A stretch of DNA of 64,000 nucleotides from an uncultured Nitrospiraceae bacterium (GTDB lineage Bacteria > Nitrospirota > Nitrospiria > Nitrospirales > Nitrospiraceae), in the NCBI GenBank assembly GCA_963846575.1, contig CAWJWJ010000001.1:800001-864000 (forward strand). The letters are read 5' to 3'. Position numbers and translations under genes: made by a program. Under the pieces are notes generated by a model that saw only the letters and a list, made by a program, of their open reading frames with translations, had not been told where the DNA came from and searched no databases. Below, piece by piece: positions 3-52,318 of this stretch; the stretch's first letter is position 1; the number at the start of each line of letters is the position of its first letter.

Positions 3-2336
3 CCCTCCCCAGTCTATGTCGACGTGGTCTTGCCACGCCGGCTACACCGCCCCTTTACCTATCTGATTCCGGCTGAGCTCAAAGGCAAAGTGGTGGTCGG
101 AAAGTCTGTCATTGTGCCATTCGGTTCCCAAGATCTTCATGGCTTAGTCATTGCCGTGCATTCATTGCTACCGTACGGGGCGCCCGATCGTGGACTAAAA
201 GCGATTCGTTCGCTCGCCGCCGAGTCTTCAGGACAAGACCTGACCTCCAAACAAGTAGAGTTGAGCCGGTGGGTGGCCGAACGGTATGCCGCACCATGGG
301 GCCAATGTATCAAGCTGGTTTTCCCTCCGACCAGGCCTTGCGACCAGGCCAGGTTTCGGTATCTGCCGACGGAGCAGGGGTTGGCCTGTTTGTCCTCCCC
401 CGCAGAATTAGGCGAGGTCGAAAGGCAATTGCTGCAGCGCCTCTTGCGCCGCCCTAAAGGCATCGCGGCGACTACCCTCATGCAGGCCGACAAAGCACGT
501 GTCCTGCCGGCATTGGAGGGCTTGGTCAGCAAAGGATTGATTGTTTGCCAGAATGTCGAGGCCAATCCGCGAATCCCTCGCGCCAGCAAGGACATGCTTG
601 TGAGGGAGGGGCAAGAACGTCCCCAGCAGGGAATGTATGATTTAGCGATATCCCTACCGTCTGAGGCGGCGGCCTGGCCCGCGACTGTGAGCCAGGCGTT
701 ATCGGGTGGCTCCTATATGCCCCTGCTGCTCCAGACCGGGGTGGACACCAGACTATGGTGTCTGTTGCAGGCCGTGGAGGAGACGCAACGGCATGGCCGG
801 CGCGTGTTGATCATCACGGGTGATGTGGAGAACGCGAGCCGTTTGGCTGATGCCCTCGCGTCCGCTGGCGAGCGCCCGTTGCTGGTGCATAGTGGCTTAT
901 CCGAGAGGGACCGGGCGGCAGGCTGGACATCGATGCGGAATGCTTTGGTGAAGATCGTAGTGGGCACCCGCATGGCAGCCTTTGCGCCTATAGAGGGACT
1001 GGGTATGGTTTGGGTGGAGGGAGAAGACGACGACTCGCTGAAAGAGGAACAGGTGCCTCGCTATCATGCGCGTGAGGTGGCTCAGCGGCGCGCCCTCTGC
1101 GATCAAGCATTGCTGGTTCTGGCCTCAAGCCATCCCTCCCTGGAGACCCGGTTGGCAGTGCACAGAGGGGAGATGACATCCTGTATCTTCAGCAACCAGA
1201 CAGCCGCTCCCCGTGTGGAGGTGATTGATTTAAAGATACATGCCAGCGACTGCGGGGCGGGCATGGTGTTGTCGCCTCCCCTGTGCGATGGCCTTCGTGA
1301 AGCGATGCGGCAGAATGCTCTTGGGATTGTGTATCTGAACCGCAAAGGCTTTGCCACTGTTCTGCATTGTCGAGATTGCGGGGCGATGCCGAAGTGTGAG
1401 GCCTGTAGTGTCACGCTGACGTTTTTTAAACGCCAAAATCACATGCGGTGCCATTATTGCGGGCGAACCAAGTCCGTACCGGATCAGTGCAACCAGTGCC
1501 AGTCTCTAAAGCTAGAGCCGGTGGGATCGGGCACGGAACGAATTGAGGAGGCGGTCCGGCGAATGTTTCCGCAGGCGCGCGTTACGCGGGTGGATGGCGA
1601 TACGATCCGACGCCCGGCCGATGCGCGTGCGTTTGCCCGTCTGCTTGCAGGCGGCGACCTGGATATTGTGGTTGGCACGCAGATGTTGTTTCGGTTGGGT
1701 CTCCACGCACAGGCTGCATTTGTGGCCGTGCCGGACGCGGATGCCGGCCTCTATGTTTCTGATTTTCGATCGGCAGAGCGCATGTACCACAGCCTCATCG
1801 ATGCCGTGGCACTGGCTCGACCCGCTCATGCGGGAGGGGTCGCCATGGTACAGACCCGTTTCACGGATCACCATGCGATAGGGGCCTTGGTTCAAGGTGA
1901 TGATGCGCTCTTTGTGGAAGCGGAGCTAGTGTTTCGGCAGATGCTCCACTATCCGCCTTACGCGCATCTCGTGAGACTGGATGTGTCCGGGACGCTTGAA
2001 CCAGTGGTGGCGGAGGCAGCCAGTCGGTGGGCGGGATTGTTACGGACGGAGGTCGCCAGGCTACCGGTATCACAATCGAATCAAGGCCCGTTGTCGGTTC
2101 TTCCTCGGGGTGTGTCTGGTATAGGCGCAGAGGAGCAGCAGACCATGATTCTTGGACCTTCACCGGCGCCCCACGCCAGGGCGAGAGGTCGGCACTGTTG
2201 GCAAATCCTGTTGAAGACTCTGGCGCCTGAGACAGGAACGGAGTTGGCCATTCGAACTCTGGAGGCGATCGAGCGGGGATCGCGACGCGGCGCGCTTCGG
2301 TTCGATATCGATGTAGATCCGGTCAGTATGGGGTGA
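3..2336 (+). CDS. priA: Primosomal protein N' (PriA), 5'-partial, with degenerate helicase motifs
   Basis: Frame is open to the window edge (…YVDVVLPRRLHRPFTY…VPFG = 3' DNA-binding domain). Also has IVVGTRMA, PRYHAREVA, LNRKGFA, a four-CxxC Cys-rich region, GSGTERIEE and C-terminal IDVDP. Confidence 0.9.
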   Translation, partial: PSPVYVDVVLPRRLHRPFTYLIPAELKGKVVVGKSVIVPFGSQDLHGLVIAVHSLLPYGAPDRGLKAIRSLAAESSGQDLTSKQVELSRWVAERYAAPWGQCIKLVFPPTRPCDQARFRYLPTEQGLACLSSPAELGEVERQLLQRLLRRPKGIAATTLMQADKARVLPALEGLVSKGLIVCQNVEANPRIPRASKDMLVREGQERPQQGMYDLAISLPSEAAAWPATVSQALSGGSYMPLLLQTGVDTRLWCLLQAVEETQRHGRRVLIITGDVENASRLADALASAGERPLLVHSGLSERDRAAGWTSMRNALVKIVVGTRMAAFAPIEGLGMVWVEGEDDDSLKEEQVPRYHAREVAQRRALCDQALLVLASSHPSLETRLAVHRGEMTSCIFSNQTAAPRVEVIDLKIHASDCGAGMVLSPPLCDGLREAMRQNALGIVYLNRKGFATVLHCRDCGAMPKCEACSVTLTFFKRQNHMRCHYCGRTKSVPDQCNQCQSLKLEPVGSGTERIEEAVRRMFPQARVTRVDGDTIRRPADARAFARLLAGGDLDIVVGTQMLFRLGLHAQAAFVAVPDADAGLYVSDFRSAERMYHSLIDAVALARPAHAGGVAMVQTRFTDHHAIGALVQGDDALFVEAELVFRQMLHYPPYAHLVRLDVSGTLEPVVAEAASRWAGLLRTEVARLPVSQSNQGPLSVLPRGVSGIGAEEQQTMILGPSPAPHARARGRHCWQILLKTLAPETGTELAIRTLEAIERGSRRGALRFDIDVDPVSMG

Positions 2337-2342
2337 TGCGCA

Positions 2343-2789
2343 TCACCCGCGTGCCCGTTTTCCTTTTTTCCCTACCGTACCGGATGGCGTGCTTAAGGGA
2401 GGAGCAGGCGGCGTGTTCCGTTCCCGCACACGTTTGAACAGCCCGAAGGCAAAAGTCACCCAAAAGACCGATGAGAACAGGCCAAAGAGAACGGCGTTCA
2501 GAATCGTTCCCATCTGCTCTTCAGTAGGCTCACTTCCTCCCATGCGGATTTGAATCATGGTTACGATGGGCCACGTCATGCTCTCAATTCCAAGCGTTAA
2601 GGTCGTCCAGGCCCAGATCGCTCCGATGCCTCGCCCCTGCCACCAGAGGAAGGTGGTTGCGCCAGCGGCAAAGATAAGCGTCCAGATCGAGGACAGCTGC
2701 TCCCACATCAGGGATGCCCCGACCGCGACTACGAGCCCGCCGAGCAGCGCATGTAATTGCGGAGTCCACCACATCATGTCCGATTCCAC
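2343..2789 (-). CDS. Hypothetical membrane protein (about 4 TM segments)
   Basis: 148-aa ORF with several hydrophobic stretches and a basic tail, converging on priA. Confidence 0.7.
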   Translation of the reverse strand: MESDMMWWTPQLHALLGGLVVAVGASLMWEQLSSIWTLIFAAGATTFLWWQGRGIGAIWAWTTLTLGIESMTWPIVTMIQIRMGGSEPTEEQMGTILNAVLFGLFSSVFWVTFAFGLFKRVRERNTPPAPPLSTPSGTVGKKGKRARG

Positions 2790-2903
2790 TCTTTCCGGTG
2801 AACGGGCAAGTAAAAGGGTGTCAGTGTGCGGATCGGTCGGCAGGAAGTCAATGCGATGCTTGCGCGGAGCGATGGCTAGGCACTGATACGGGTGGCTGGG
2901 TGG

Positions 2904-3275
2904 TCAACGGGCAATCTCGGTCTGAACGGCGTCCAAGAGTTGTTGCATCTCGAACGGCTTTTGAAGCGTGCGACGAGCCCCCAGCATGCGGGCCACGTCC
3001 AGAAAGTTCAGAATCCCGATCATGTCGCTGCCGCCCGTGATGGCCATAATCCTCGCTTCCGGAAATTCTCGACGCAACGTCAAAATGCTCTCGAGGCCGT
3101 CTTGGTCGGGCATCAGGATGTCCATGATGACCAGATCTGCGGGCGATTGCCGGTACCAAGCGAGGCCTTGCTTGCCGTCAGCCGCTTCCTGGACGTGATA
3201 ACCGGCCTGCTCCAGCGTTTCTCTAATGAGGCGGCGTATCGCCTCTTCGTCGTCCACGACTAAGACCGATGGCAT
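2904..3275 (-). CDS. Single-domain response regulator (receiver)
   Basis: VLVVDDE, phospho-acceptor MDILMP, AITG, LQKPF; GAGGAG RBS upstream. Confidence 0.93.
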   Translation of the reverse strand: MPSVLVVDDEEAIRRLIRETLEQAGYHVQEAADGKQGLAWYRQSPADLVIMDILMPDQDGLESILTLRREFPEARIMAITGGSDMIGILNFLDVARMLGARRTLQKPFEMQQLLDAVQTEIAR

Positions 3276-3383
3276 AACGCTCCTCGCAGAAGTCCACTAC
3301 TGTAAGAAATCGACATGTGTGCGCGCTAGGTAATGAGATGAGAAATGTAGGTATGTGAGTAGCGTCTCACCGTCCCTTTGAAT

Positions 3384-4991
3384 TTACCGCTCCTTGTCTC
3401 GCTCGGCAAGGAATTCCTTCCGCTCCGTAACGGGGGAAATTCCTTCTCGGGCCGGTTCATTCGCAACCGCTGTTTCGGGGTTGGAAATCGCGGGTAGGTA
3501 CACCTCGATGGTGGTGCCCTGTGCCACCGTACTGGTGGCGCGGAAAGTTCCGCCATGCTCGCTCACAATATTTTGAACCTCAGAGAATCCGACGAGGGGT
3601 CCATCTCCTCCGGTGCTAGGAATCAAGAATGGATCGACATGATGCGGAAGAACATCAGAACTATGCCCCTCACCCGTATCAGAGACCGTCAGGCGCACAT
3701 AGTGACCGGGCGGGAGCGGCAGATCATGATCGTTACCGGGAGCGGCGAGGTGAATGTTGTCCAAATGCACCTCGAGAATTCCACCGGTCGTGCTCATGAC
3801 CTGTTCGGAATGCGCTAAGAGGCTGACACAAACCTGGTGAATCTGGGTTGGATCGGCGTGTATGGGTTTCGTCGCTCCAGATATCCATTCTCGAAGGGTA
3901 ATGTTGTCGGGTAACCGGCCTCTCAAAATACGGAGAGTTTCTTTCAGCAGGATGTCCAGGGAAATAGGCTGTTTTGTGTGGTTTCCCTGGCGGCCGAACA
4001 GGAGCATTTGAGTGACCAAGTCACGGGCCCGTTTTGAAGCGAGCACGACTTGTTGCAAGTGCCCGTGGGCACGGCTGTCCGGCGCGAGGAGGGGGAGAGT
4101 CAAATCTGAAAACCCCATGATGGCGGTGAGACAATTGTTGAATTCATGGGCAATGCCGCCCGCCAGTGTCGCCATGGCCGCTGTTTTTTTTGCCTGCCGT
4201 AGTTGGGCGGATGTCTGGTTCTTGGCAGTGACATCGGTGAGGACCACTTGTACCGCGGCCTGTCCGTCAAACAAGATTGGCGCGGAGATCATCTCCACGT
4301 CGACATGGGATCCGTCGGGTCGCACAAACTGTCGTTCGGTGGGAGCCGTTGGCGTGGAGGCGCTGGGATGTTCCGACGACGTCAACCCTCGGATGAATTC
4401 TTCTGAGAAACATTCGGAGAGAGGGCGTCCCTCAAGGTCATGAGCCGAGCTCATTCCGAAGAGTCGGACGCCGGCTTGGTTAAGAAACAACAGGGCTCCC
4501 TCGGCGTGAACCAGGATGGCATGAGGGGACAGGAGAATTAGGCTACGGTACCGTTCTTCGCTCGCGTGCAGGGCTTCCATGGCCAATTGTCGCGGGGTGA
4601 CATCACGGACCATACCCACGTATCCGGTCGAGGTATCTCCGTTGGTTCGCAGGGGGAAGGCTTCCGCCATGACCCAGCGGATTGAGCCGTCTGGACGTTG
4701 AAACCGGAATTCCCGTGCGAAGCTGCGATGGTCGGCGACGGCTCCTGCCCATTCGGCGCTGATGACGTCATAATCGTCCGGAGAGAGAGCATTGATCCAG
4801 GATTCACCCGCGGTGGGTGTGGCTGGAAGTCCGGCCATGCGGCGCAGTCGGTCGTTGATATATAAGGTGTGGCCTTCGGGGTCAGACAGGAAGATGCCGA
4901 TCGACGCTTCGCCCGAGAGCGTACGAATAAACGCTTCGATCGCCGATTGTCCGGCAGGGGGAAAGGCCGCTATGAGTTCCCGTGAACTCAC
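3384..4991 (-). CDS. PAS-PAS sensor histidine kinase-like protein (degenerate HATPase)
   Basis: Two PAS/PAC domains (RFQRPDGSIRWV, VRPDGSHVDVE), H-box LAGGIAHEFNN, TVSDTGEG, GTTIEVYLP. Confidence 0.88.
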   Translation of the reverse strand: MSSRELIAAFPPAGQSAIEAFIRTLSGEASIGIFLSDPEGHTLYINDRLRRMAGLPATPTAGESWINALSPDDYDVISAEWAGAVADHRSFAREFRFQRPDGSIRWVMAEAFPLRTNGDTSTGYVGMVRDVTPRQLAMEALHASEERYRSLILLSPHAILVHAEGALLFLNQAGVRLFGMSSAHDLEGRPLSECFSEEFIRGLTSSEHPSASTPTAPTERQFVRPDGSHVDVEMISAPILFDGQAAVQVVLTDVTAKNQTSAQLRQAKKTAAMATLAGGIAHEFNNCLTAIMGFSDLTLPLLAPDSRAHGHLQQVVLASKRARDLVTQMLLFGRQGNHTKQPISLDILLKETLRILRGRLPDNITLREWISGATKPIHADPTQIHQVCVSLLAHSEQVMSTTGGILEVHLDNIHLAAPGNDHDLPLPPGHYVRLTVSDTGEGHSSDVLPHHVDPFLIPSTGGDGPLVGFSEVQNIVSEHGGTFRATSTVAQGTTIEVYLPAISNPETAVANEPAREGISPVTERKEFLAERDKER

Positions 4992-45913: not shown

Positions 45914-45962
45914 GATGGTGGGCGATACTGGTATCGAACCAGTGGCCTCTTCCGTGTGAAGG
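45914..45962. repeat. att site: copy of the tRNA-Val 3' part (matches 52242-52290)
   Basis: GATGGTGGGCGATACTGGTATCGAACCAGTGGCCTCTTCCGTGTGAAGG is identical at both positions. Confidence 0.96.
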
Positions 45963-46091
45963 TAAAAAGCTAGATTTTCGAATTGCTCGCTGTTGCAACG
46001 GTTTCCCCACAAAACCTTTCAATGTCATGTGGTTAAGAGCTTTCTATCGCGTCTACTGTGTACAGGAGATTTTAAGGTTTTGGCTTATTTC

Positions 46092-46113
46092 TGACACAAA
46101 AATGACCACAGTG
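46092..46113. repeat. 22-bp direct repeat (second copy 52179-52200), putative integrase arm-type sites
   Basis: TGACACAAAAATGACCACAGTG is present just inside each element end. Confidence 0.8.
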
Positions 46114-46278
46114 CCTCGGAAGACAGGATCGTTAATCAGCGGGGAGGGTCAAAAAATCGGGCAGTCCGAACACTCCAGCAATGAACGACGGTCGAGCGGC
46201 TCGCAAAATCGCTGACCGCTGACTACAGAGCCGTACCACCATGGTATACTGCCTGCGGATACACTGGATGTGCTGCCG

Positions 46279-46533
46279 ATGAAAGCCGTGAAGTACACCA
46301 AAGAAGGCGTAGTGATTCCCTCCTCCTGGATGAAGGGGTGGGGAAAAGCCGTCGTGGCACATCGCGACTCCGACGTCCTGATCTTGGAGTCCCCGGCCAG
46401 AGCGGCGAGTCGCAAGAAGTTGGCCCGTATGGTCAGCAAGCTACGCCGCGCCACCCGCGAACTGGGCGTCACCCCCGAACAGATTGCCGCTGAGGTTGCA
46501 GCGGTTCGGCGCGAGCGTGCGCGTCCTTCTTGA
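46279..46533 (+). CDS. Putative antitoxin (AbrB-like N-terminus)
   Basis: Small ORF with a GVVIP motif, overlapping the PIN gene start. Confidence 0.7.
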   Translation: MKAVKYTKEGVVIPSSWMKGWGKAVVAHRDSDVLILESPARAASRKKLARMVSKLRRATRELGVTPEQIAAEVAAVRRERARPS

Positions 46534-46936
46534 TACCAATATATTCGTGTCCGGCCTGTTGTCCGCCGCAGGGCCTCCTGCCCGGATCATTCAGGCTGTC
46601 TTACAGCGCCGCCTCATCCCCCTCATGAGCTCCGATACTTTCGCGGAACTGGAAGCCGTCCTGCGGCGGCCCAAACTCCAACGGGCGTTCACCCGCGCTG
46701 GGGTGAATATCACGAGCTTTCTAGCGACCATCCAAGCTGAAGTGCAGTTCGTCGATCCCCATCCCACGAATACTCCGTTGCGTGATGCGCATGATCGACC
46801 GTTCCTCGATCTCATGGCGACCTCACCTCCACCGCAATATTTCGTCACCGGAGATAAGGATTTCGAGGCCTCACACTACAGTGGCGTGCCGGTCATTTCA
46901 GCTGCCGAGTTTGCCCGCCTGCTCACACATCGCTAG
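46517..46936 (+). CDS. PIN-domain toxin (VapC-like)
   Basis: RVLLDTNIFVSGLL, EL..VL.RPK, RDAHD, FVTGDKDF. Confidence 0.9.
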   Translation: MRVLLDTNIFVSGLLSAAGPPARIIQAVLQRRLIPLMSSDTFAELEAVLRRPKLQRAFTRAGVNITSFLATIQAEVQFVDPHPTNTPLRDAHDRPFLDLMATSPPPQYFVTGDKDFEASHYSGVPVISAAEFARLLTHR

Positions 46937-47126
46937 TGGATTCTTGTCTTGCTCACAATGCGAAGCTACGCGCGCCGTTGCTTCGATCTCCGCTGGCAGC
47001 GAGGTATTCAGCGTCCATTCGGACTACCGTAATTGGGTGAACCGCCGTGAGAGCTCGAGAGAGCCTGTCTGGGGAAGCGTGCCTGCTAGCTGTAGAAGTG
47101 GACGCCTCATTCACCCACTTCTTCGC

Positions 47127-47537
47127 TCAAAGCTCGGAACGCTCACTCAGGAAAGGAGAGAATAATCTTGTTCTGGCACCAGCAGGCACCACAACAGCCA
47201 AGGTATACGCAGTGGCAGATGAGACCATGGCGGTCACCCCATTGAACTTCACGACATTGTTGGAGGGAACCGGATCAAATCCGTAGCCTTGCACGCGACA
47301 GAGTTCCGTGACTGGTCCACTGCCGGGATTCACGAGATAGATCCCGATGCCACTGCCATGCGGCGTGAAGCGATCGATCGAGAGAAGATTGCCGACTGGA
47401 TCGTAGTTGTAGACGGCGGTCGCGCCAGTACTGTCGCTCACACTTGTGAGGCGACCCTGGTCATCATAGAGATATTGGGCTTGATCGGCTTGGAGTGACG
47501 AAACGAGACAAAACAAAAAAATAACCGTCGGAATCAT
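47127..47537 (-). pseudogene. N-terminal fragment of an exported Rhs/YD-repeat protein (signal peptide, YD repeat, one IPT/TIG domain), 3'-truncated
   Basis: QYLYDDQGRL…YNYDPVGNL then P.SGPV…QGYGFDP…NVVKFNG…LAVVVPAGA, after which similarity stops abruptly. Confidence 0.75.
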
Positions 47538-47625
47538 TCGACCTTCGACGGCTAGCTGTTTTCCTGATAACACTTAGTTTCCTCGTTTTTCATGAGGATT
47601 TACATTGATGGTGACTTGCATCTAG

Positions 47626-48141
47626 TTATTTCTTAGACATGTTCGGCTCAACAAATTGAACGGCCAACATGTCTACAACTCCTGATAGATTTTCTATACT
47701 GTGCCCAATTTCAGCCCGTTGGTTAACCGAAAGTTGAAACAATTCGCTTGTCTTTTCTCGAAGCACCCTTCCATGAAAGTCGACAAAAAAGGTGTCGTCC
47801 GGGGATTTCAGTTTGAGTTTTATCGCTCCATCTTCCAGAGGGACAGATCCCCGAGTCGCCGTGAGCATTTTTTTTAACTTGCGAAGGAGAGGGTGTTCAC
47901 CAGACGGATTAAAAGAGGTAGGGGTTCCCGTAATAATCTGAATCTTAAACGAGCTTCTCTCCTCTATTTCTGTCATTCGAATCCCAACCAACATGGAGGC
48001 CTCAAACGGGTCATAGAAAACTTTCGCCACTGCTGGCGCATTTGGCCTATCATTCTTCGATTGTCCTGAAACGTTCCCGACGAAAAATACACAAAACAAA
48101 TAGAAGAGAAGACAACAAATCTTTACAGCGCTACTTCTCAC
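47626..48141 (-). CDS. Putative Rhs immunity protein (secreted)
   Basis: Start overlaps the toxin stop; AT-rich; signal-peptide-like N-terminus; no recognisable domain. Confidence 0.6.
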   Translation of the reverse strand: MRSSAVKICCLLFYLFCVFFVGNVSGQSKNDRPNAPAVAKVFYDPFEASMLVGIRMTEIEERSSFKIQIITGTPTSFNPSGEHPLLRKLKKMLTATRGSVPLEDGAIKLKLKSPDDTFFVDFHGRVLREKTSELFQLSVNQRAEIGHSIENLSGVVDMLAVQFVEPNMSKK

Positions 48142-49402
48142 TGTTGCTCCTTTTGCATGGCAAATCGATATGTTGAGTGCGAATAGGTTCGTTTAGATCT
48201 TGAGACACGGGGTTTTCGTACTGGCCAATTATGCGCACTTCGTATTCCCTTATCGTCTCAGTCTGATTCATTTTGTAATCAATTAGGTGGCCCATTTCAT
48301 GAGCCAATGCTCGCTCCAGGGAGAAAGTGAATTTTCGACCTCCCGAGCAGCTGCTAAGGCCTTGCACGTAAGTGGGGTCTATTTCTATCCAAAGATATGC
48401 GGCCCGACTAACTTTCCACCCAGTCCTATCTATGACTTGGTAATGAGTCAATGAGTTCTGAAGCTCGGTAATCATTCGAAGGCCGGATGGGCTCTTCGCA
48501 ATAAGATTGCCGAAAGCTACTTGAAACACGGGGTTTGAAGGAATGTCTAATATCAATCCAAACGGATCAACGAAGGACAGTGGCCGATTGGCAACATAGA
48601 CATATAAATTCATGGCACTGCTACCAAACTCAATAGGATCCTCACCGACAAACCGCTGGATCTTCGGGTGATAGTACCGCGCCCCATAGAAGTAGAGTCC
48701 CGTCCCATCATTCTCCCGCCCTGTGTACTGAAACTCATTACTGCTGACAGTGCCTGCTTGCGTGGAATTGCCGAAGGGCTCATAAGTGTACGTGGTCTGA
48801 CTCGTCCCGGCGGGATTCGTGAGCGCGATGGAGGTCCCGAGCGCATCGGTCTCGTAGAACTCATCGCTAGCGCCTTTGCGAATGTAGGGCTCATCAATGC
48901 TCAATCCACGGATATAGGTGACCGACGGGGTCGCCCCCGTCAATTCGGCATATACGTCACTCCCGTCGTACCAGAACCCGGCGGTGGTACCGTTGATCGT
49001 CTTGCTTTGTCTTCGTCCCAATCCGTCATAGATGAAGCTTGCCGTCAAACCGGTTCGGCTGATTCCTGTCAGTCTGTTTCTGGCATCCCACGTATAGGTC
49101 GTGGTCACCCCGGCTTGCGTCTCGGTCGCGAGATTGCCATTGCTGTCATATGTCAAATTGGTAGTCGCGCTGTTCCACCGTGTTAGCTCATTCGCCACGT
49201 CGTACCCAATATTGGCGGCGGCCACGGCTGTAGGAAGGTTAGAAGCAACCGCGTTCTGACGTAACTGCGTGATCCGATTTCCCTGCTTATCGTACGTATA
49301 GGTGAGCGCTTCAATCGTCGTCGGCGTCAGGGTTTTACTTCCCTCTGATCCTATCCCAGAACGCGGGGAATGCCTCCCAAACTGTTTTTCGCGCACGGTC
49401 AA
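48131..49402 (-). CDS. 5'-truncated Rhs core protein with C-terminal HExxH metallopeptidase toxin
   Basis: YD repeats, YEPFG, QYTGRE, YYHP..QRF..EDP, NLYVYVANRP..FVDPFGL; tip contains LAHEMGH and YENP…P.R. Confidence 0.85.
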   Translation of the reverse strand: MTVREKQFGRHSPRSGIGSEGSKTLTPTTIEALTYTYDKQGNRITQLRQNAVASNLPTAVAAANIGYDVANELTRWNSATTNLTYDSNGNLATETQAGVTTTYTWDARNRLTGISRTGLTASFIYDGLGRRQSKTINGTTAGFWYDGSDVYAELTGATPSVTYIRGLSIDEPYIRKGASDEFYETDALGTSIALTNPAGTSQTTYTYEPFGNSTQAGTVSSNEFQYTGRENDGTGLYFYGARYYHPKIQRFVGEDPIEFGSSAMNLYVYVANRPLSFVDPFGLILDIPSNPVFQVAFGNLIAKSPSGLRMITELQNSLTHYQVIDRTGWKVSRAAYLWIEIDPTYVQGLSSCSGGRKFTFSLERALAHEMGHLIDYKMNQTETIREYEVRIIGQYENPVSQDLNEPIRTQHIDLPCKRSNSEK

Positions 49403-49750
49403 AAAACCGGTCGATTTTTGGTTACTGCATGTTCCGGCTCTGAACGATGCTCACAATTGCCGCTCTGAGCGCACTAAAACGCACATACGCCTCCTTATGC
49501 CTACTTCCTTTCGTGCCTCATCTGTCCCAAAATCTGTCCTCTCCTGTCCCCGCGTGACCCCTAGTGGCCCCTTCAGGGGCCTTTGCTTCACTCCGGTGAT
49601 TCGCCTAGGGTGAGACGAACGGGAACAGGGCTCAAATGGAGGGAATGATGTCCGAGTCGGAACGCGTCAGACAGGAACACCGTCGTCCGTGGAAGGGAGA
49701 CAAAGCCGGTCCGCGCCGCATGCCGTCAGGCTGGGGCGCGGAGCGGAATG

Positions 49751-49775
49751 GCCCCCGTCTTGGTAACACGGGGGC
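49751..49775 (+). other. Candidate double-strand origin/nick-site hairpin
   Basis: GCCCCCGT-CTTGGTAAC-ACGGGGGC perfect 8-bp stem, 40 bp upstream of rep. Confidence 0.6.
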
Positions 49776-49814
49776 GCTACCCACAGCGCTCCGTACAGGA
49801 GTTCGATAGATTCC

Positions 49815-50822
49815 ATGGATTCTAGCTTCACCCTCTCGATTGATTGGCTGGCCTTTACCGTCTTGGCGAGCAACCCCCAAGAGACCATGAAGGTTCTTGG
49901 CGGCGATTGGAGTAGGGCCAAAGGGGACTTCCGAGGGTATCCCTTGTCCTGGATGCGGGTAGACGGCCTGCGCGGGGTCGGCAAACTGGGCACCAATGCC
50001 CCTCGTCGTCCGAATGAAATCCATGTGGACTTGTCGGGCGGCCTCGCGTCCGCCATGACACTGGATCAGATCCGAACCCTGCTCAAGTGGGTACATGCCC
50101 AACAGGGGCATGTCACACGCATCGACTGTGCACTCGATGACCGAGCGGGAACGGTGCCGGTCTCGACCATCCGAGAAGCGGTATCGGCAGGCCAATGTGT
50201 CACGAGGGCGGCTCAGGTCCGGCATATCGTGTCCAATCTGACGCATGGGACAGGAGCCACCACGGGCGAGACGATGTACTTCGGGAGTCCGCAGAGTCAG
50301 ACCTTGCTCCGTATCTACGACAAGCGCTTGGAACTGCAGAGCAAGGGCCAGGAAAACTACCAGGACTACGGGACTCGGTGGGAGTTGGAACTCAAGAAGG
50401 ACCGCGCCGAGCAATGTGCAAGAGCATTGGCGACCTTAGACGAAGCCGATTGGAAGGAGTTAGTAGTCGGCTTGCTTCGCTCCTATGTGGATTTCAGACA
50501 GATTACCAAAGAGACAGAGGATGAAGACCGATACCGGGCTCCAGTCTTGGAGTGGTACGCCCTCCTGACGGAGGGATTTCAGAAGGGGCGATTGGCCCAG
50601 GAGAAGCAGGTACAGACCCTGCAGTATGTGAAACGATGGGTGAGTGACACCCTGACGCCGATGTTGGCGGTTATTTGTGCCACCCCTGGAGGGGAAGAAT
50701 GGCTACAGCAGGAAATTGTCAGGGGCATTGCTCGGTGGAAAGACCGACACCGCAATTTGCTCAAACAACCACCCAATCGGTTTCACCGGTCTGCCGGCGG
50801 TCACGCGGGCAGCCCATGTTAG
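49815..50822 (+). CDS. Rep_trans-family replication initiator/relaxase
   Basis: IDWLAFT, VTRIDCALDD, GETMYFGS (catalytic Tyr), LRIYDKRLE, TRWELELK; AGGAG RBS. Confidence 0.9.
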   Translation: MDSSFTLSIDWLAFTVLASNPQETMKVLGGDWSRAKGDFRGYPLSWMRVDGLRGVGKLGTNAPRRPNEIHVDLSGGLASAMTLDQIRTLLKWVHAQQGHVTRIDCALDDRAGTVPVSTIREAVSAGQCVTRAAQVRHIVSNLTHGTGATTGETMYFGSPQSQTLLRIYDKRLELQSKGQENYQDYGTRWELELKKDRAEQCARALATLDEADWKELVVGLLRSYVDFRQITKETEDEDRYRAPVLEWYALLTEGFQKGRLAQEKQVQTLQYVKRWVSDTLTPMLAVICATPGGEEWLQQEIVRGIARWKDRHRNLLKQPPNRFHRSAGGHAGSPC

Positions 50823-50864
50823 GGGGACTGGGGGTGTCGGCAGACTCCCCCGGTGTATCTGCAC

Positions 50865-51179
50865 ATGCTCACCGTCAAAGAGCTCTCGGCTTGGCTCAAC
50901 ATCAAGCCGTCCACACTCTACCTCTGGGTTTCCAAGAAAAAGATTCCGTGCCGTCGCATTCATGGCCTCGTCCGCTTTGAACCTGAGGCGATCCAGGCCT
51001 GGCTAAACGGCTTTTCTTCTACGTCGAATATGAGGCCTCACCGCGTGCCTCGGCGTAAAGCTGGTGACGTAGACCACCTCATTGAAGCGGCTAAACGTGC
51101 CGTCTATACTTCCCGCCACGGGGAAACCAGACCAACAGCGAGCCCTCTTGGAAAGGAGAACAACGATGGGGCTCGTTAA
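50865..51179 (+). CDS. Excisionase-like HTH DNA-binding protein
   Basis: MLTVKELSAWLNIKPSTLYLWV…IP…VRF…I.AW; lies directly before the integrase. Confidence 0.85.
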   Translation: MLTVKELSAWLNIKPSTLYLWVSKKKIPCRRIHGLVRFEPEAIQAWLNGFSSTSNMRPHRVPRRKAGDVDHLIEAAKRAVYTSRHGETRPTASPLGKENNDGAR

Positions 51180-52287
51180 GCGTGGGAGTATTTGGTGGAT
51201 GAATATTGTGTTTCAAGGGCAACGCATTCGCCGCTCGACAGGGTCATCGAATCGAGCTTTGGCTGACGCCATTATGGCGAAGGTGAAGGTGCAATTGATC
51301 GAGGGGCAGTATTTTGATCGAGCGGAGGAACAATCTCGGACCTTCGCGGAATTGATGGATCGTTTTGAGCGAGAACACCTGGTGAAACTGGCCAGCCGAC
51401 AAACCGGACAAGCCTTCGTCAAGCGCTTCCGGGCCTTCTTCGGAGACCGGACGCTCGGCGAGATTACCCCTAAGCTGATCGCGGAGTATAAAAGTCGACG
51501 GTACGCTACCGGGGTGAAACCTGCCTCGATCAATCGAGAGCTCACCTGTTTGCGAAAGGCCTTCAACCTGGCGAGGCGGGAGTGGGAATGGTGTCGAGAC
51601 AATCCCGTCAGTCGCGTGTCTCTCGAAAAGGGCGCGACGAAACGAGACCGATGGCTGATGGAAGACGAGGAGGCACGATTGCTCGATGCCTGTCCGTCTT
51701 GGTTACGCGAGCTCGTGGTGTTCGCGCTGCATAGCGGGATGCGGTTGGGCGAGATCCTGTCACTGACCTGTGCCGGAGTGGATCTGTTCCGAAGAACGGC
51801 GACCGTGTTTGAGTCGAAAAACGGCGAGCGACGGACAGTGCCATTGAATCACACCGTGATGACGCTCCTGACGGAGAAGGCCAAAGTGCGGCATATCAAA
51901 ACCGCACTGGTCTTTCCGAGTCTCGCTGGTACACGGTTAGATCCTAACCATCTGCGACGGGCGTTGCGGCCTGCGATGGCAAAAGCGGGGATTGTGAACT
52001 GCCATTTCCATGACCTCCGCCACACCTTTGCGACGCGGCTGGTCCAGGCGGGAGTCGATCTTTACAAGGTGCAACGGCTCCTCGGGCACAAGTCGCCGAT
52101 GATGACGCAACGTTATGCTCATCATTACCCGGAAAGCCTGCGGGATGGAGTGGAGATTTTGGACCGACGATCACACTGTGACACAAAAATGACCACAGTG
52201 TTGCGCGTATCAGAGAGTGCTGTCGTGGAAGTCGTTGAAAAGATGGTGGGCGATACTGGTATCGAACCAGTGGCCTCTTCCGTGTGA
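51166..52287 (+). CDS. Tyrosine recombinase (phage-type integrase)
   Basis: AAGGAG RBS; GMRLGE, SKNG, HDLRHT, LLGH, QRYAH catalytic residues all present. Confidence 0.95.
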   Translation: MGLVKRGSIWWMNIVFQGQRIRRSTGSSNRALADAIMAKVKVQLIEGQYFDRAEEQSRTFAELMDRFEREHLVKLASRQTGQAFVKRFRAFFGDRTLGEITPKLIAEYKSRRYATGVKPASINRELTCLRKAFNLARREWEWCRDNPVSRVSLEKGATKRDRWLMEDEEARLLDACPSWLRELVVFALHSGMRLGEILSLTCAGVDLFRRTATVFESKNGERRTVPLNHTVMTLLTEKAKVRHIKTALVFPSLAGTRLDPNHLRRALRPAMAKAGIVNCHFHDLRHTFATRLVQAGVDLYKVQRLLGHKSPMMTQRYAHHYPESLRDGVEILDRRSHCDTKMTTVLRVSESAVVEVVEKMVGDTGIEPVASSV

Positions 52288-52318
52288 AGGAAGCGCTCTC
52301 CCCCTGAGCTAATCGCCC
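52244..52318 (-). tRNA. tRNA-Val(CAC)
   Basis: Reverse complement GGGCGATTAGCTCAGGGGGAGAGCGCTTCCTTCACACGGAAGAGGCCACTGGTTCGATACCAGTATCGCCCACCA. Confidence 0.97.

Follow-up and report, generated by a model that had tools for sequence, protein, structure and literature searches.

A compact tRNA-Val element of a Nitrospiraceae bacterium and its inovirus-related integrative lineage, a candidate class of filamentous-phage satellites

We analyzed a 64,000-nucleotide stretch of DNA (the window; contig CAWJWJ010000001.1, positions 800,001 to 864,000, assembly GCA_963846575.1) from an uncultured Nitrospiraceae bacterium, concentrating on a compact element integrated at a tRNA-Val gene. The element spans positions 45914-52290 of the window, bounds set by the perfect 49-bp direct repeat (45914-45962 / 52242-52290) that the first-pass annotation of the sequence had reported, and the genes flanking it are core genes (trmFO). 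Its attachment (att) sites and backbone comprise the following features, in window coordinates.

45914..45962, no strand: left copy of the att core, the 3' part of tRNA-Val(cac); the 49-bp repeat is 100% identical, and relatives have att copies of 45-56 bp in the same place
45963..46113, no strand: conserved left end, including a 22-nt repeat copy (46092-46113), probable arm-type site of the integrase (Int)
49343..49697, no strand: conserved non-coding block upstream of the origin, subtype B, with short tandem repeats at 49527-49611
49698..49814, plus strand: rolling-circle origin with a GC-rich hairpin (49752-49774); nicking predicted in the loop T^AA, between 49764 and 49765
49815..50822, plus strand: Rep_trans initiator (rep), 335 aa, lacking a helix-turn-helix (HTH) at the N terminus; PF02486 E=4e-34, top PDB match RepSTK1 (4CIJ)
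50793..50854, plus strand: G/C hairpin between rep and xis, its 5' part coding the Rep C-terminal tail; probable deletion scar of a virion module
50865..51179, plus strand: excisionase-like HTH protein (xis); HTH_17, TIGR01764 above cut-off
51166..52287, plus strand: tyrosine integrase (int), stop codon within the att core; Phage_integrase E=4e-39
52179..52200, no strand: other 22-nt repeat copy, likewise a probable arm-type site of Int, kept in 6/6 tRNA-Val elements compared
52242..52318, minus strand: right copy of the att core (52242-52290) within an intact tRNA-Val(cac) gene (52244-52318), from repeat and tRNA calls

As first annotated, rep, xis and int are open frames in one direction, and their catalytic residues are retained (D10, D104, Y168, K170, E173 and E190 in the Rep motifs; R193, K218, H282, R285, H308 and Y317 in the integrase). 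The two 22-nt direct repeats would flank the att core in the circle form and are likely Int arm sites; they and the hairpins at 49752-49774 and 50793-50854 add to the first-pass annotation, which had not noted them. Sequence conservation of the left end holds among tRNA-Val elements and extends, in weak form, to the corresponding ends of most other members of the family. Scans of the element for promoters and terminators and with Rfam returned the tRNA and nothing further. No Zot, coat or conjugation gene was found between the att sites in the open reading frame (ORF) list or the family scans, in agreement with the earlier statement that conjugation, capsid and Zot-like genes are absent.

The search of related genomes suggested in the first-pass annotation recovered the same backbone at tRNA genes across the genus. 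Two more compact rep-xis-int elements lie in the window genome (tRNA-Thr and tRNA-Arg; Rep ~90% identical), together with four further loci whose Rep is 46-52% identical to the compact Rep. Rep matches, in two identity classes, occurred in 33 of the 36 same-genus genomes among 60 relatives and in 0/24 from other families. Compact-type Reps were present in 30/37 same-genus genomes, a count derived from 115 Rep rows after secondary fragments were dropped and one 62-aa fragment was added by hand. A phylum-wide draw gave matches in 27/301 genomes (25/60 within the family, one outside it), and compact elements with att repeats were also found in other genera (L139-L141; retrieved loci carry L numbers). 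Of 40 named GTDB records that contain the origin motif exactly, nearly all belong to Nitrospira (Ca. N. defluvii FP929003.1 accounts for three), and the named Rep homologues are Nitrospira or Nitrospirota; on these grounds Nitrospira is the most likely host. The exact motif was also seen on small contigs of metagenome-assembled genomes labelled Nitrosomonas, Rhodospirillales and Sumerlaeaceae (L101, L106, L112, L124, L132), which reflects misbinning or a wider host range.

We compiled 59 compact loci (56 retrieved, the window element and its two siblings). A tRNA gene lies ~2.43 kb after the rep start in 45 of them, and the targets are of six types (13 Arg-cct, 9 Val-cac, 9 Glu-ctc, 8 Thr-cgt, 5 Gly-gcc and 1 Met). 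Att repeats bound 36/59 elements of 4.1-16.6 kb (median 7.1 kb), a set from which one further att-bounded element, cut by a contig end, was excluded. Reps are mostly 85-96% identical, and integrases are 91-97% identical among tRNA-Val elements and fall to 43-63% between elements at different tRNAs. Since Reps stay similar while integrases diverge across tRNA sites, the integration module is exchanged between elements. Remnants of the int end and tandem att arrays are common among the loci. Three tRNA-Val elements (L190, L248 and L257) have lost most of rep/xis/int and keep origin, att and cargo, and may be non-autonomous derivatives; a joint from 49680 to 52214 in sequencing runs X1 and X5 indicates similar forms. 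In L050 and L086, one tRNA cluster holds a compact element tail to tail with an inovirus prophage (~+2.5 to +9.4 kb from rep), an arrangement that recalls RS1-CTX arrays.

The four more distant Rep loci of the window genome are Zot-encoding inovirus prophages. Their order is HTH, origin, rep, small single-stranded DNA-binding protein (SSB)-like ORF, pIII-like, Ace/pVI-like, Zot, coat-like ORFs, JAB, xis/int and tRNA, where the SSB, pIII and coat labels reflect size and position, without a family match. The compact element equals this layout minus everything between rep and xis, with the same gene order around the gap. The G/C hairpin at the gap was found in 35/36 compact elements and in 6/23 inoviruses, where it stands directly before xis, 5.4-6.0 kb after rep. 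The C-terminal tail of the compact Rep is absent from inovirus Reps and aligns with inovirus non-coding DNA before xis. Hairpin and tail together are probably the deletion scar of the virion module, common to several genera.

The four prophages (G000 C2:2083762-2091140, L005; C2:434421-441811, L006; C2:1344259-1351546, L004; C1:1-6544, L001) have near-identical virion genes, a RadC/JAB gene and different integration modules (three tyrosine integrase types and one serine-recombinase-like), and their att copies lie 8-32 kb away, indicating long accessory regions.

The origin region also points to inoviruses. The nick hairpin sits 40-63 nt upstream of rep and is exact in 52/59 compact loci, and a homologous hairpin is present in 22/23 inoviruses. 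Upstream of the origin two subtypes were distinguished: subtype A compact elements have a NikA-like ribbon-helix-helix (RHH) gene at the position of the subtype B non-coding block. Tandem repeats of the type at 49527-49611 occur upstream of 13/23 inoviruses, in 16/21 compact elements without the RHH gene and in 0/15 with it.

A FastTree phylogeny of 48 Reps, after 12 short or redundant ones were left out, placed the compact clade (core support 1.0, at least three genera) inside the Nitrospiraceae inovirus Reps, with two gut inovirus Reps next and pSTK1, pLCAKO.1 and Tn916 Orf20 outside. A clade of compact and plasmid/Tn916 Reps was rejected by the approximately unbiased (AU) test (AU ~1e-12; 22 sequences). 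Compact Reps may be nested within or sister to inovirus Reps, the topology tests differing on the monophyly of Zot-linked Reps (see below). The first-pass annotation had set Rep_trans among rolling-circle initiators of the pT181 family and some inoviruses or MOB_T relaxases of ICEBs1 and Tn916; cis-elements and Rep tie the element to its co-resident inoviruses and not to the MOB_T integrative conjugative elements.

Reduction happened more than once, because other Zot-less derivatives (L143, L148, L156, L164) branch separately. These and L146 are further reduced forms from related genera. One of them keeps SSB-like and coat-like genes without a Zot match, and is a possible satellite with its own coat; the others keep rep and int only, on separate Rep branches.

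Several observations indicate that the lineage is active. The nick context of Rep_trans and MOB_T proteins has been described as CT'AA (PMC9371924; here and below, publications are cited from the parts of their text that were accessible). The 11 nt right after the predicted nick are duplicated exactly in L049 and L079, and L088 has recombined at the same bond. Because the RepC protein of pT181 finishes its round bound to 10-12 nt 3' of the nick (PMC9371924), we read the 11-nt duplication as an apparent replication footprint. Nonsynonymous divergence (dN) in rep was 0.025-0.048 against synonymous divergence (dS) of 0.53-0.90 in 9/9 pairs (dN/dS ~0.05, purifying selection), and in int ~0.02 against 0.26-0.32 in 3/3 pairs. 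Of 57 Reps, 49 passed a length test and 8 were broken or mis-started, with the test miscounting a few frameshifted or mis-started copies. Of 30 relatives, 16 have an occupied tRNA-Val site, 6 a different one and 8 an empty one (an int remnant remains in one of these 8), so that the empty attB sites anticipated by the first-pass annotation do occur.

Depth was analyzed in 4 of 24 listed sequencing runs, each of the 24 holding only a small share of the words searched; we draw no conclusion on habitat from them and give no weight to the lack of coverage over the Rhs cargo. In run X2, depth was ~800-3,500 on the left end, PIN pair, origin, rep, xis and int and 0 in every flanking bin. One contig ends at 52272 and another begins at 45915, the 31-mer adjacency expected of attP; X2 consists of 13 Mb of contigs with no library type on record, and the attP joint itself is not among the printed joints. 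This backbone enrichment is suggestive of an excised circle, but a divergent host chromosome could also hide the flanks. The three remaining runs cover the flanks and have joints that jump across the element (45830 to 52241-52243), which indicates empty sites in relatives. For the attP circle that the first-pass annotation had proposed to look for, an attP-like contig adjacency was seen and no circular contig. AttP-like junctions in L100, L136, L187, L229 and L233 were tandem arrays, int remnants or undecidable, and were discarded as evidence. Taken together, we hold with high confidence that the element has inovirus ancestry and belongs to an active, excising rolling-circle lineage.

Between the left end and the origin lies the accessory slot, here occupied as follows.

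46270..46533, plus strand: small ORF 5' of the PIN gene and overlapping it, 87 aa, likely start ATG 46279; putative antitoxin
46517..46936, plus strand: PIN-family toxin; PIN_3 E=3e-15, TIGR00305 above cut-off
47127..47573, minus strand: 148-aa ORF, 5' fragment of a secreted YD-repeat and IPT/TIG accessory gene of an Rhs cassette
47626..48141, minus strand: 171-aa putative immunity gene that immediately follows the Rhs tip; 43.8% GC, start resembling a signal peptide
48131..49342, minus strand: 5'-truncated Rhs with YD repeats, core end (DPFG ends at 48556) and HExxH tip (48131-48555); TIGR03696 above cut-off

A toxin-antitoxin pair had been annotated at this end. The PIN toxin stands; the small ORF always accompanies it in relatives (68-99% identity) and had no match in the family scans, and its antitoxin role is suggested by position. 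The annotated ~2.3 kb of Rhs toxin/immunity cargo is Rhs-derived over 47127-49342, where three minus-strand ORFs lie, and is not an intact cassette, being cut at both ends. The Rhs ORF corresponds to the final ~400 aa of relatives of 1,497-2,004 aa, without the delivery N-terminus: its residues 7-298 are 74% identical to residues 1082-1376 of the 1,497-aa Rhs of L182. An Rhs origin for the start of this 423-aa ORF was rejected, the first ~20 codons being backbone DNA. The 148-aa ORF belongs to a separate YD+TIG gene of ~300-330 aa, of which it is the 5' half: residues 29-133 show 70% identity to residues 30-134 of a 329-aa protein in L182, and L060 and L072 carry versions of 299-319 aa. It was therefore rejected as the N-terminus of a second Rhs.

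The Rhs tip resembles a zinc metallopeptidase on language-model features only. Its homologue search, limited to longer proteins, found only the tip itself, the search with the 171-aa putative immunity protein likewise returned only its query, and an AlphaFold model of the tip made with no alignment (pLDDT 32) was discarded. The order of tip and downstream gene would fit a variable tip with cognate immunity, as would a swap seen in a sister element, L212, where left end, PIN pair, junction and YD+TIG fragment are as in the window and the tip and immunity gene differ. At this same junction, L208, L226 and L243 have further, different Rhs fragments. No full-length Rhs parent was found in the window genome, where the element's Rhs core is the only one; the cargo is an orphan Rhs tip with immunity gene and, as read from its ORFs, cannot encode a full Rhs. 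Since this truncated copy is the only Rhs core in the genome, what the element supplies is at best a donor tip or immunity. Next to tRNA-Thr(tgt) in the same genome (C2:1607098-1607673, L007) lies another short Rhs remnant, which belongs to a different lineage and has no core end.

A whole cassette is visible in L182, between the att sites of a tRNA-Lys inovirus, where the 1,497-aa Rhs is followed by an immunity gene, an orphan module, a further immunity gene, the 329-aa YD+TIG gene and two secreted proteins. The window cargo corresponds to the middle of an L182-type cassette, from the Rhs end through the 171-aa gene to the first half of the YD+TIG gene. Complete Rhs cassettes are also present in L060 and L072. 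The att-bounded inovirus region of ~19 kb (L182:7231-19901, with L167) holds its complete cassette with a HigBA-like pair just outside, and 3/7 IMG/VR contigs with the origin of the L182/L167 inovirus also have upstream Rhs pieces. Secreted proteins of 400-510 aa without a Pfam match, 42-47% identical to each other, close the cassette after the YD+TIG gene at independent loci (L060:4763-6289; L182:7465-10119) and constitute a conserved, unnamed accessory family.

Across the family, 320 predicted cargo ORFs fell into 204 clusters, of which 107 representatives were scanned in Pfam and 32 hand-picked ones in PADLOC. Matches included type III restriction-modification, Lamassu, AbiTii, dCTP deaminase, TIR, NACHT, Dsr1- and Mokosh-like proteins and Fic, besides arsenic-resistance genes, PAS kinases, regulators and insertion sequences; a retron-type reverse transcriptase and PifA were found in elements whose attL was not located. 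Anti-phage systems are present in many of the relatives, and the cargo slot is a defense hotspot worth mining for unannotated genes. Examples are the retron-type reverse transcriptase (L061:4584-5525), Lamassu LmuAB (L041:11910-14816), dCTP deaminase (L051:12715-14373) and type III restriction-modification (L048). In L053, four similar secreted proteins of 242-254 aa alternate with lipase-like gene fragments, which we take to resemble an orphan toxin/immunity array of another kind.

Rhs sequence was found in 5/36 att-bounded elements and in 1/13 from metagenome contigs. In eight near-closed genomes, 6/12 Rhs loci lay at most 16 kb upstream of a family Rep (5/11 without the window), a zone making up 1.8% of the DNA. 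Overall, 14/61 Rhs loci were upstream of a Rep, with an Rhs core at 6/73 compact and 8/42 inovirus Reps. In these counts kin are not independent, and they stand without a comparison set of other tRNA islands. Rhs is a recurrent cargo common to compact elements and inoviruses. An automatic harvest of immunity genes for orphan immunity cargo recovered 8 tips and was uninformative.

We propose the following life cycle. An ancestral filamentous prophage of the order origin, rep, virion genes, xis, int and tRNA would have lost its entire virion module, keeping origin, rep, xis, int and, between attL and the origin, the accessory slot. Int and Xis would excise a circle from the tRNA 3' end, consistent with the empty sites and the attP-compatible contig adjacency. 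Rep would nick T^AA in the hairpin loop and replicate the circle through a single-stranded DNA (ssDNA) form, as expected from the chemistry of its family and from the pT181-like duplication. A helper inovirus would most likely coat and extrude this ssDNA, as for RS1 and TLC, and Int would insert the element at the cognate tRNA of a recipient, integrase exchange opening other tRNAs. The PIN pair may stabilize the element, and the accessory slot may turn over fast among defense systems, regulators and Rhs pieces, here an orphan tip with its immunity gene. This is in keeping with the earlier view of an excisable, rolling-circle, helper-dependent element, to which the empty sites, the nick hairpin with its duplication and the backbone-only coverage of one run can now be added.

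The backbone has no gene able to move DNA between cells, and Zot, coat and SSB had no match inside the att sites of the 36 att-bounded elements. Packaging by a helper inovirus is favored because of the ancestry, the ssDNA replication and the precedent of RS1, TLC, pDolos and Pf miniphages. With moderate confidence we regard the element as a member of an old, active, inovirus-derived integrative lineage of Nitrospiraceae that may transfer as an inovirus satellite, and inovirus particles as its somewhat probable vehicle. More tentatively, the family may form a stable, family-wide class of integrase-encoding inovirus satellites, a 'domesticated miniphage' that arose once by virion-module deletion, sits in most tRNA hotspots of lineage-I-type Nitrospira, shares exchangeable anti-phage and Rhs toxin/immunity cargo with its helper phages and spreads in filamentous particles without host lysis.

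A number of points weigh against transfer as a satellite or against the evidence behind it. Virion packaging of the element's ssDNA is itself inferred from comparable systems. Run X2 rests on contigs, with a divergent host chromosome as a possible explanation of its missing flanks, and among 160 origin-bearing loci no circular contig with a terminal repeat was found. Each of the four window-genome prophages has a frameshift or deletion relative to an intact relative, through decay or assembly error. No Zot-query match was obtained in 14/30 compact-Rep genomes, including two closed genomes that are also negative for PF05707. A strong hairpin of 20/23 inoviruses, a candidate packaging signal or minus-strand origin, occurs in 0/36 compact elements, where its retention would be expected, and the other two shared non-coding pieces are present in only 6/23 and 13/23 inoviruses. 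Monophyly of Zot-linked Reps was rejected by the AU test (0.025) and not by the Kishino-Hasegawa (0.076) or Shimodaira-Hasegawa (0.28) tests, on 22 sequences with 5,000 replicates, which are too few. IMG/VR gave no match for the compact origin or Rep, an uninformative result since that collection selects on viral hallmark genes.

Among the alternatives, the one that survives best is an integrative mobilizable element (IME), in which the Rep_trans protein would be a MOB_T-like relaxase, the hairpin an oriT and a foreign conjugative type IV secretion system the vehicle, as for streptococcal Rep_trans IMEs. Rep_trans initiators and MOB_T relaxases have a common chemistry and nick site (PMC9371924), and Rep_trans IMEs carrying toxin-antitoxin pairs exist (PMC5704250). 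The element has the int/xis excision module and the nic site in a GC hairpin of MOB_T IMEs, but its Rep scored 53.6 bits against the MobT model NF041493 (cut-off 600) and so fails the MobT-family test, has no N-terminal HTH and is excluded from the pSTK1/Tn916 Rep clade. The missing inovirus hairpin would suit an IME, as would the NikA-like RHH gene beside the origin in 15/36 att-bounded elements (subtype A), a gene that the window element lacks. Coupling-protein genes (PF02534) occur in 8/37 genus genomes, fewer than the 19/37 with a Zot-query match, and neither PF02534 nor VirB4 (PF03135) had a match in the window genome. We consider mobilization of this kind unlikely.

Less likely still is a self-replicating island without a dedicated helper, whose high-copy circles would spread in vesicles, by tailed-phage transduction or by transformation and whose link to inoviruses would be ancestry only. 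Integrase islands carried by unrelated phages are known (PMC12595487). The X2 enrichment, the same missing hairpin and the occurrence of elements in genomes that lack both Zot and coupling protein agree with such an island, but the backbone has no terminase, capsid-redirecting or other hijack gene, and inoviruses are common in the genus. Rolling-circle ssDNA is, moreover, the established substrate of inovirus extrusion.

The first-pass annotation saw in the element a shuttle for polymorphic toxins, and one could extend this to a dedicated function of carrying and exchanging Rhs toxin/immunity modules. The clustering of Rhs loci upstream of family Reps, the L212 swap, the fragments at the same junction in three further loci and the two complete cassettes all speak for it. 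Cargo across the family is mixed, however: 31/36 att-bounded elements and 12/13 from metagenome contigs have no Rhs, inovirus prophages carry it as often (8/42 against 6/73), the enrichment was counted without comparison to other tRNA islands, and the window copy is truncated with no parent in its genome. As a defining role of the family this is very improbable; for a sub-lineage the shuttle holds, since Rhs is a recurring cargo here and in the inoviruses and a tip/immunity swap is seen in L212.

Decaying, vertically inherited prophage remnants with random cargo, as an inovirus deletion derivative with 8/57 faulty Reps, frequent int-end remnants and att arrays, and the ready origin of transient miniphages in Pf (PMC11996451) might suggest, can be set aside as highly implausible given one deletion junction common to several genera, the fixed distance from rep to tRNA, a dN/dS of ~0.05, near-identical Reps paired with integrases that match six tRNA targets, and patchy tRNA-Val occupancy.

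Few inovirus satellites are known (RS1, TLC and pDolos), and that they arose through reduction of a helper is mostly conjecture. In Nitrospira, ancestor-like prophages and the reduced form occur in the same genomes, the probable deletion scar is readable and further independent reductions lie alongside. Packaging, if it occurs, would make these islands a main non-lytic route for defense and competition genes in nitrite oxidizers, where coupling-protein genes are uncommon. The native origin, initiator, integrase and att sites are raw material for Nitrospira vectors, in a group with few genetic tools. Large inovirus surveys may list these loci in supplementary tables. The first-pass annotation had not recognized a described family, and the family appears undescribed: in the accessible literature, largely without subscription papers, we found no such Nitrospira elements and no integrase-encoding, cargo-bearing family of inovirus satellites.

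Finally, we compared the element with known systems. RS1 and TLC are satellites of Vibrio cholerae filamentous phages that integrate, lack morphogenesis genes and are packaged by a helper (PMC3545932). The Nitrospira family shares with them chromosomal integration, a filamentous-phage-type initiator, the absence of morphogenesis genes and kinship to co-resident helper phages. It differs in having its own Int/Xis and six tRNA targets, whereas RS1 and TLC use host XerCD at dif, in lacking an rstB-like SSB and rstC and in having a variable cargo slot of 1.5-14 kb; helper packaging is demonstrated for RS1/TLC and inferred here. Pf prophages are similar in that integrase type follows the tRNA site, the excisionase is HTH_17 and accessory genes including toxin-antitoxin pairs lie between core and att (PMC7549136). 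Pf cheater miniphages of Pseudomonas aeruginosa have likewise lost structural genes and need the full-length phage (PMC11996451), but they are transient, arise repeatedly and drive prophage loss in days, whereas the Nitrospira lineage is fixed, old (Rep ~50% identical to that of the present helpers), under purifying selection and spread over several genera. The rolling-circle element pDolos is also self-replicating, free of phage structural genes and, in its case, inovirus-packaged (bioRxiv 2023.11.28.569023); it does not integrate and has no recognizable phage ancestry, whereas the Nitrospira element integrates and its ancestry is visible.

Rep_trans/MOB_T IMEs of Firmicutes (e.g. IMESag-rpsI) and the pT181 family share the PF02486 initiator, the T^AA nick in a GC-rich hairpin loop, the tyrosine integrase and the toxin-antitoxin pair (PMC9371924, PMC5704250). 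In contrast, the Nitrospira Rep lies outside the MobT family by NCBIfam and by the tree, with inovirus Reps as nearest kin, no coupling protein accompanies it, the loop reads GT^AA instead of CT^AA and the host is Gram-negative. Orphan Rhs modules generally consist of a core-end fragment, a variable tip and a small immunity gene downstream. The cargo here has this layout, and tip and putative immunity gene are exchanged between sister elements, but the orphan sits by itself on a mobile element and the genome has no rhs of full length. By the features compared, the element falls outside the integrative mobile elements exploiting Xer (IMEX), the MOB_T IMEs and the inoviruses, and in its workings resembles a satellite of the RS1/TLC type or a fixed miniphage that integrates in the manner of Pf.

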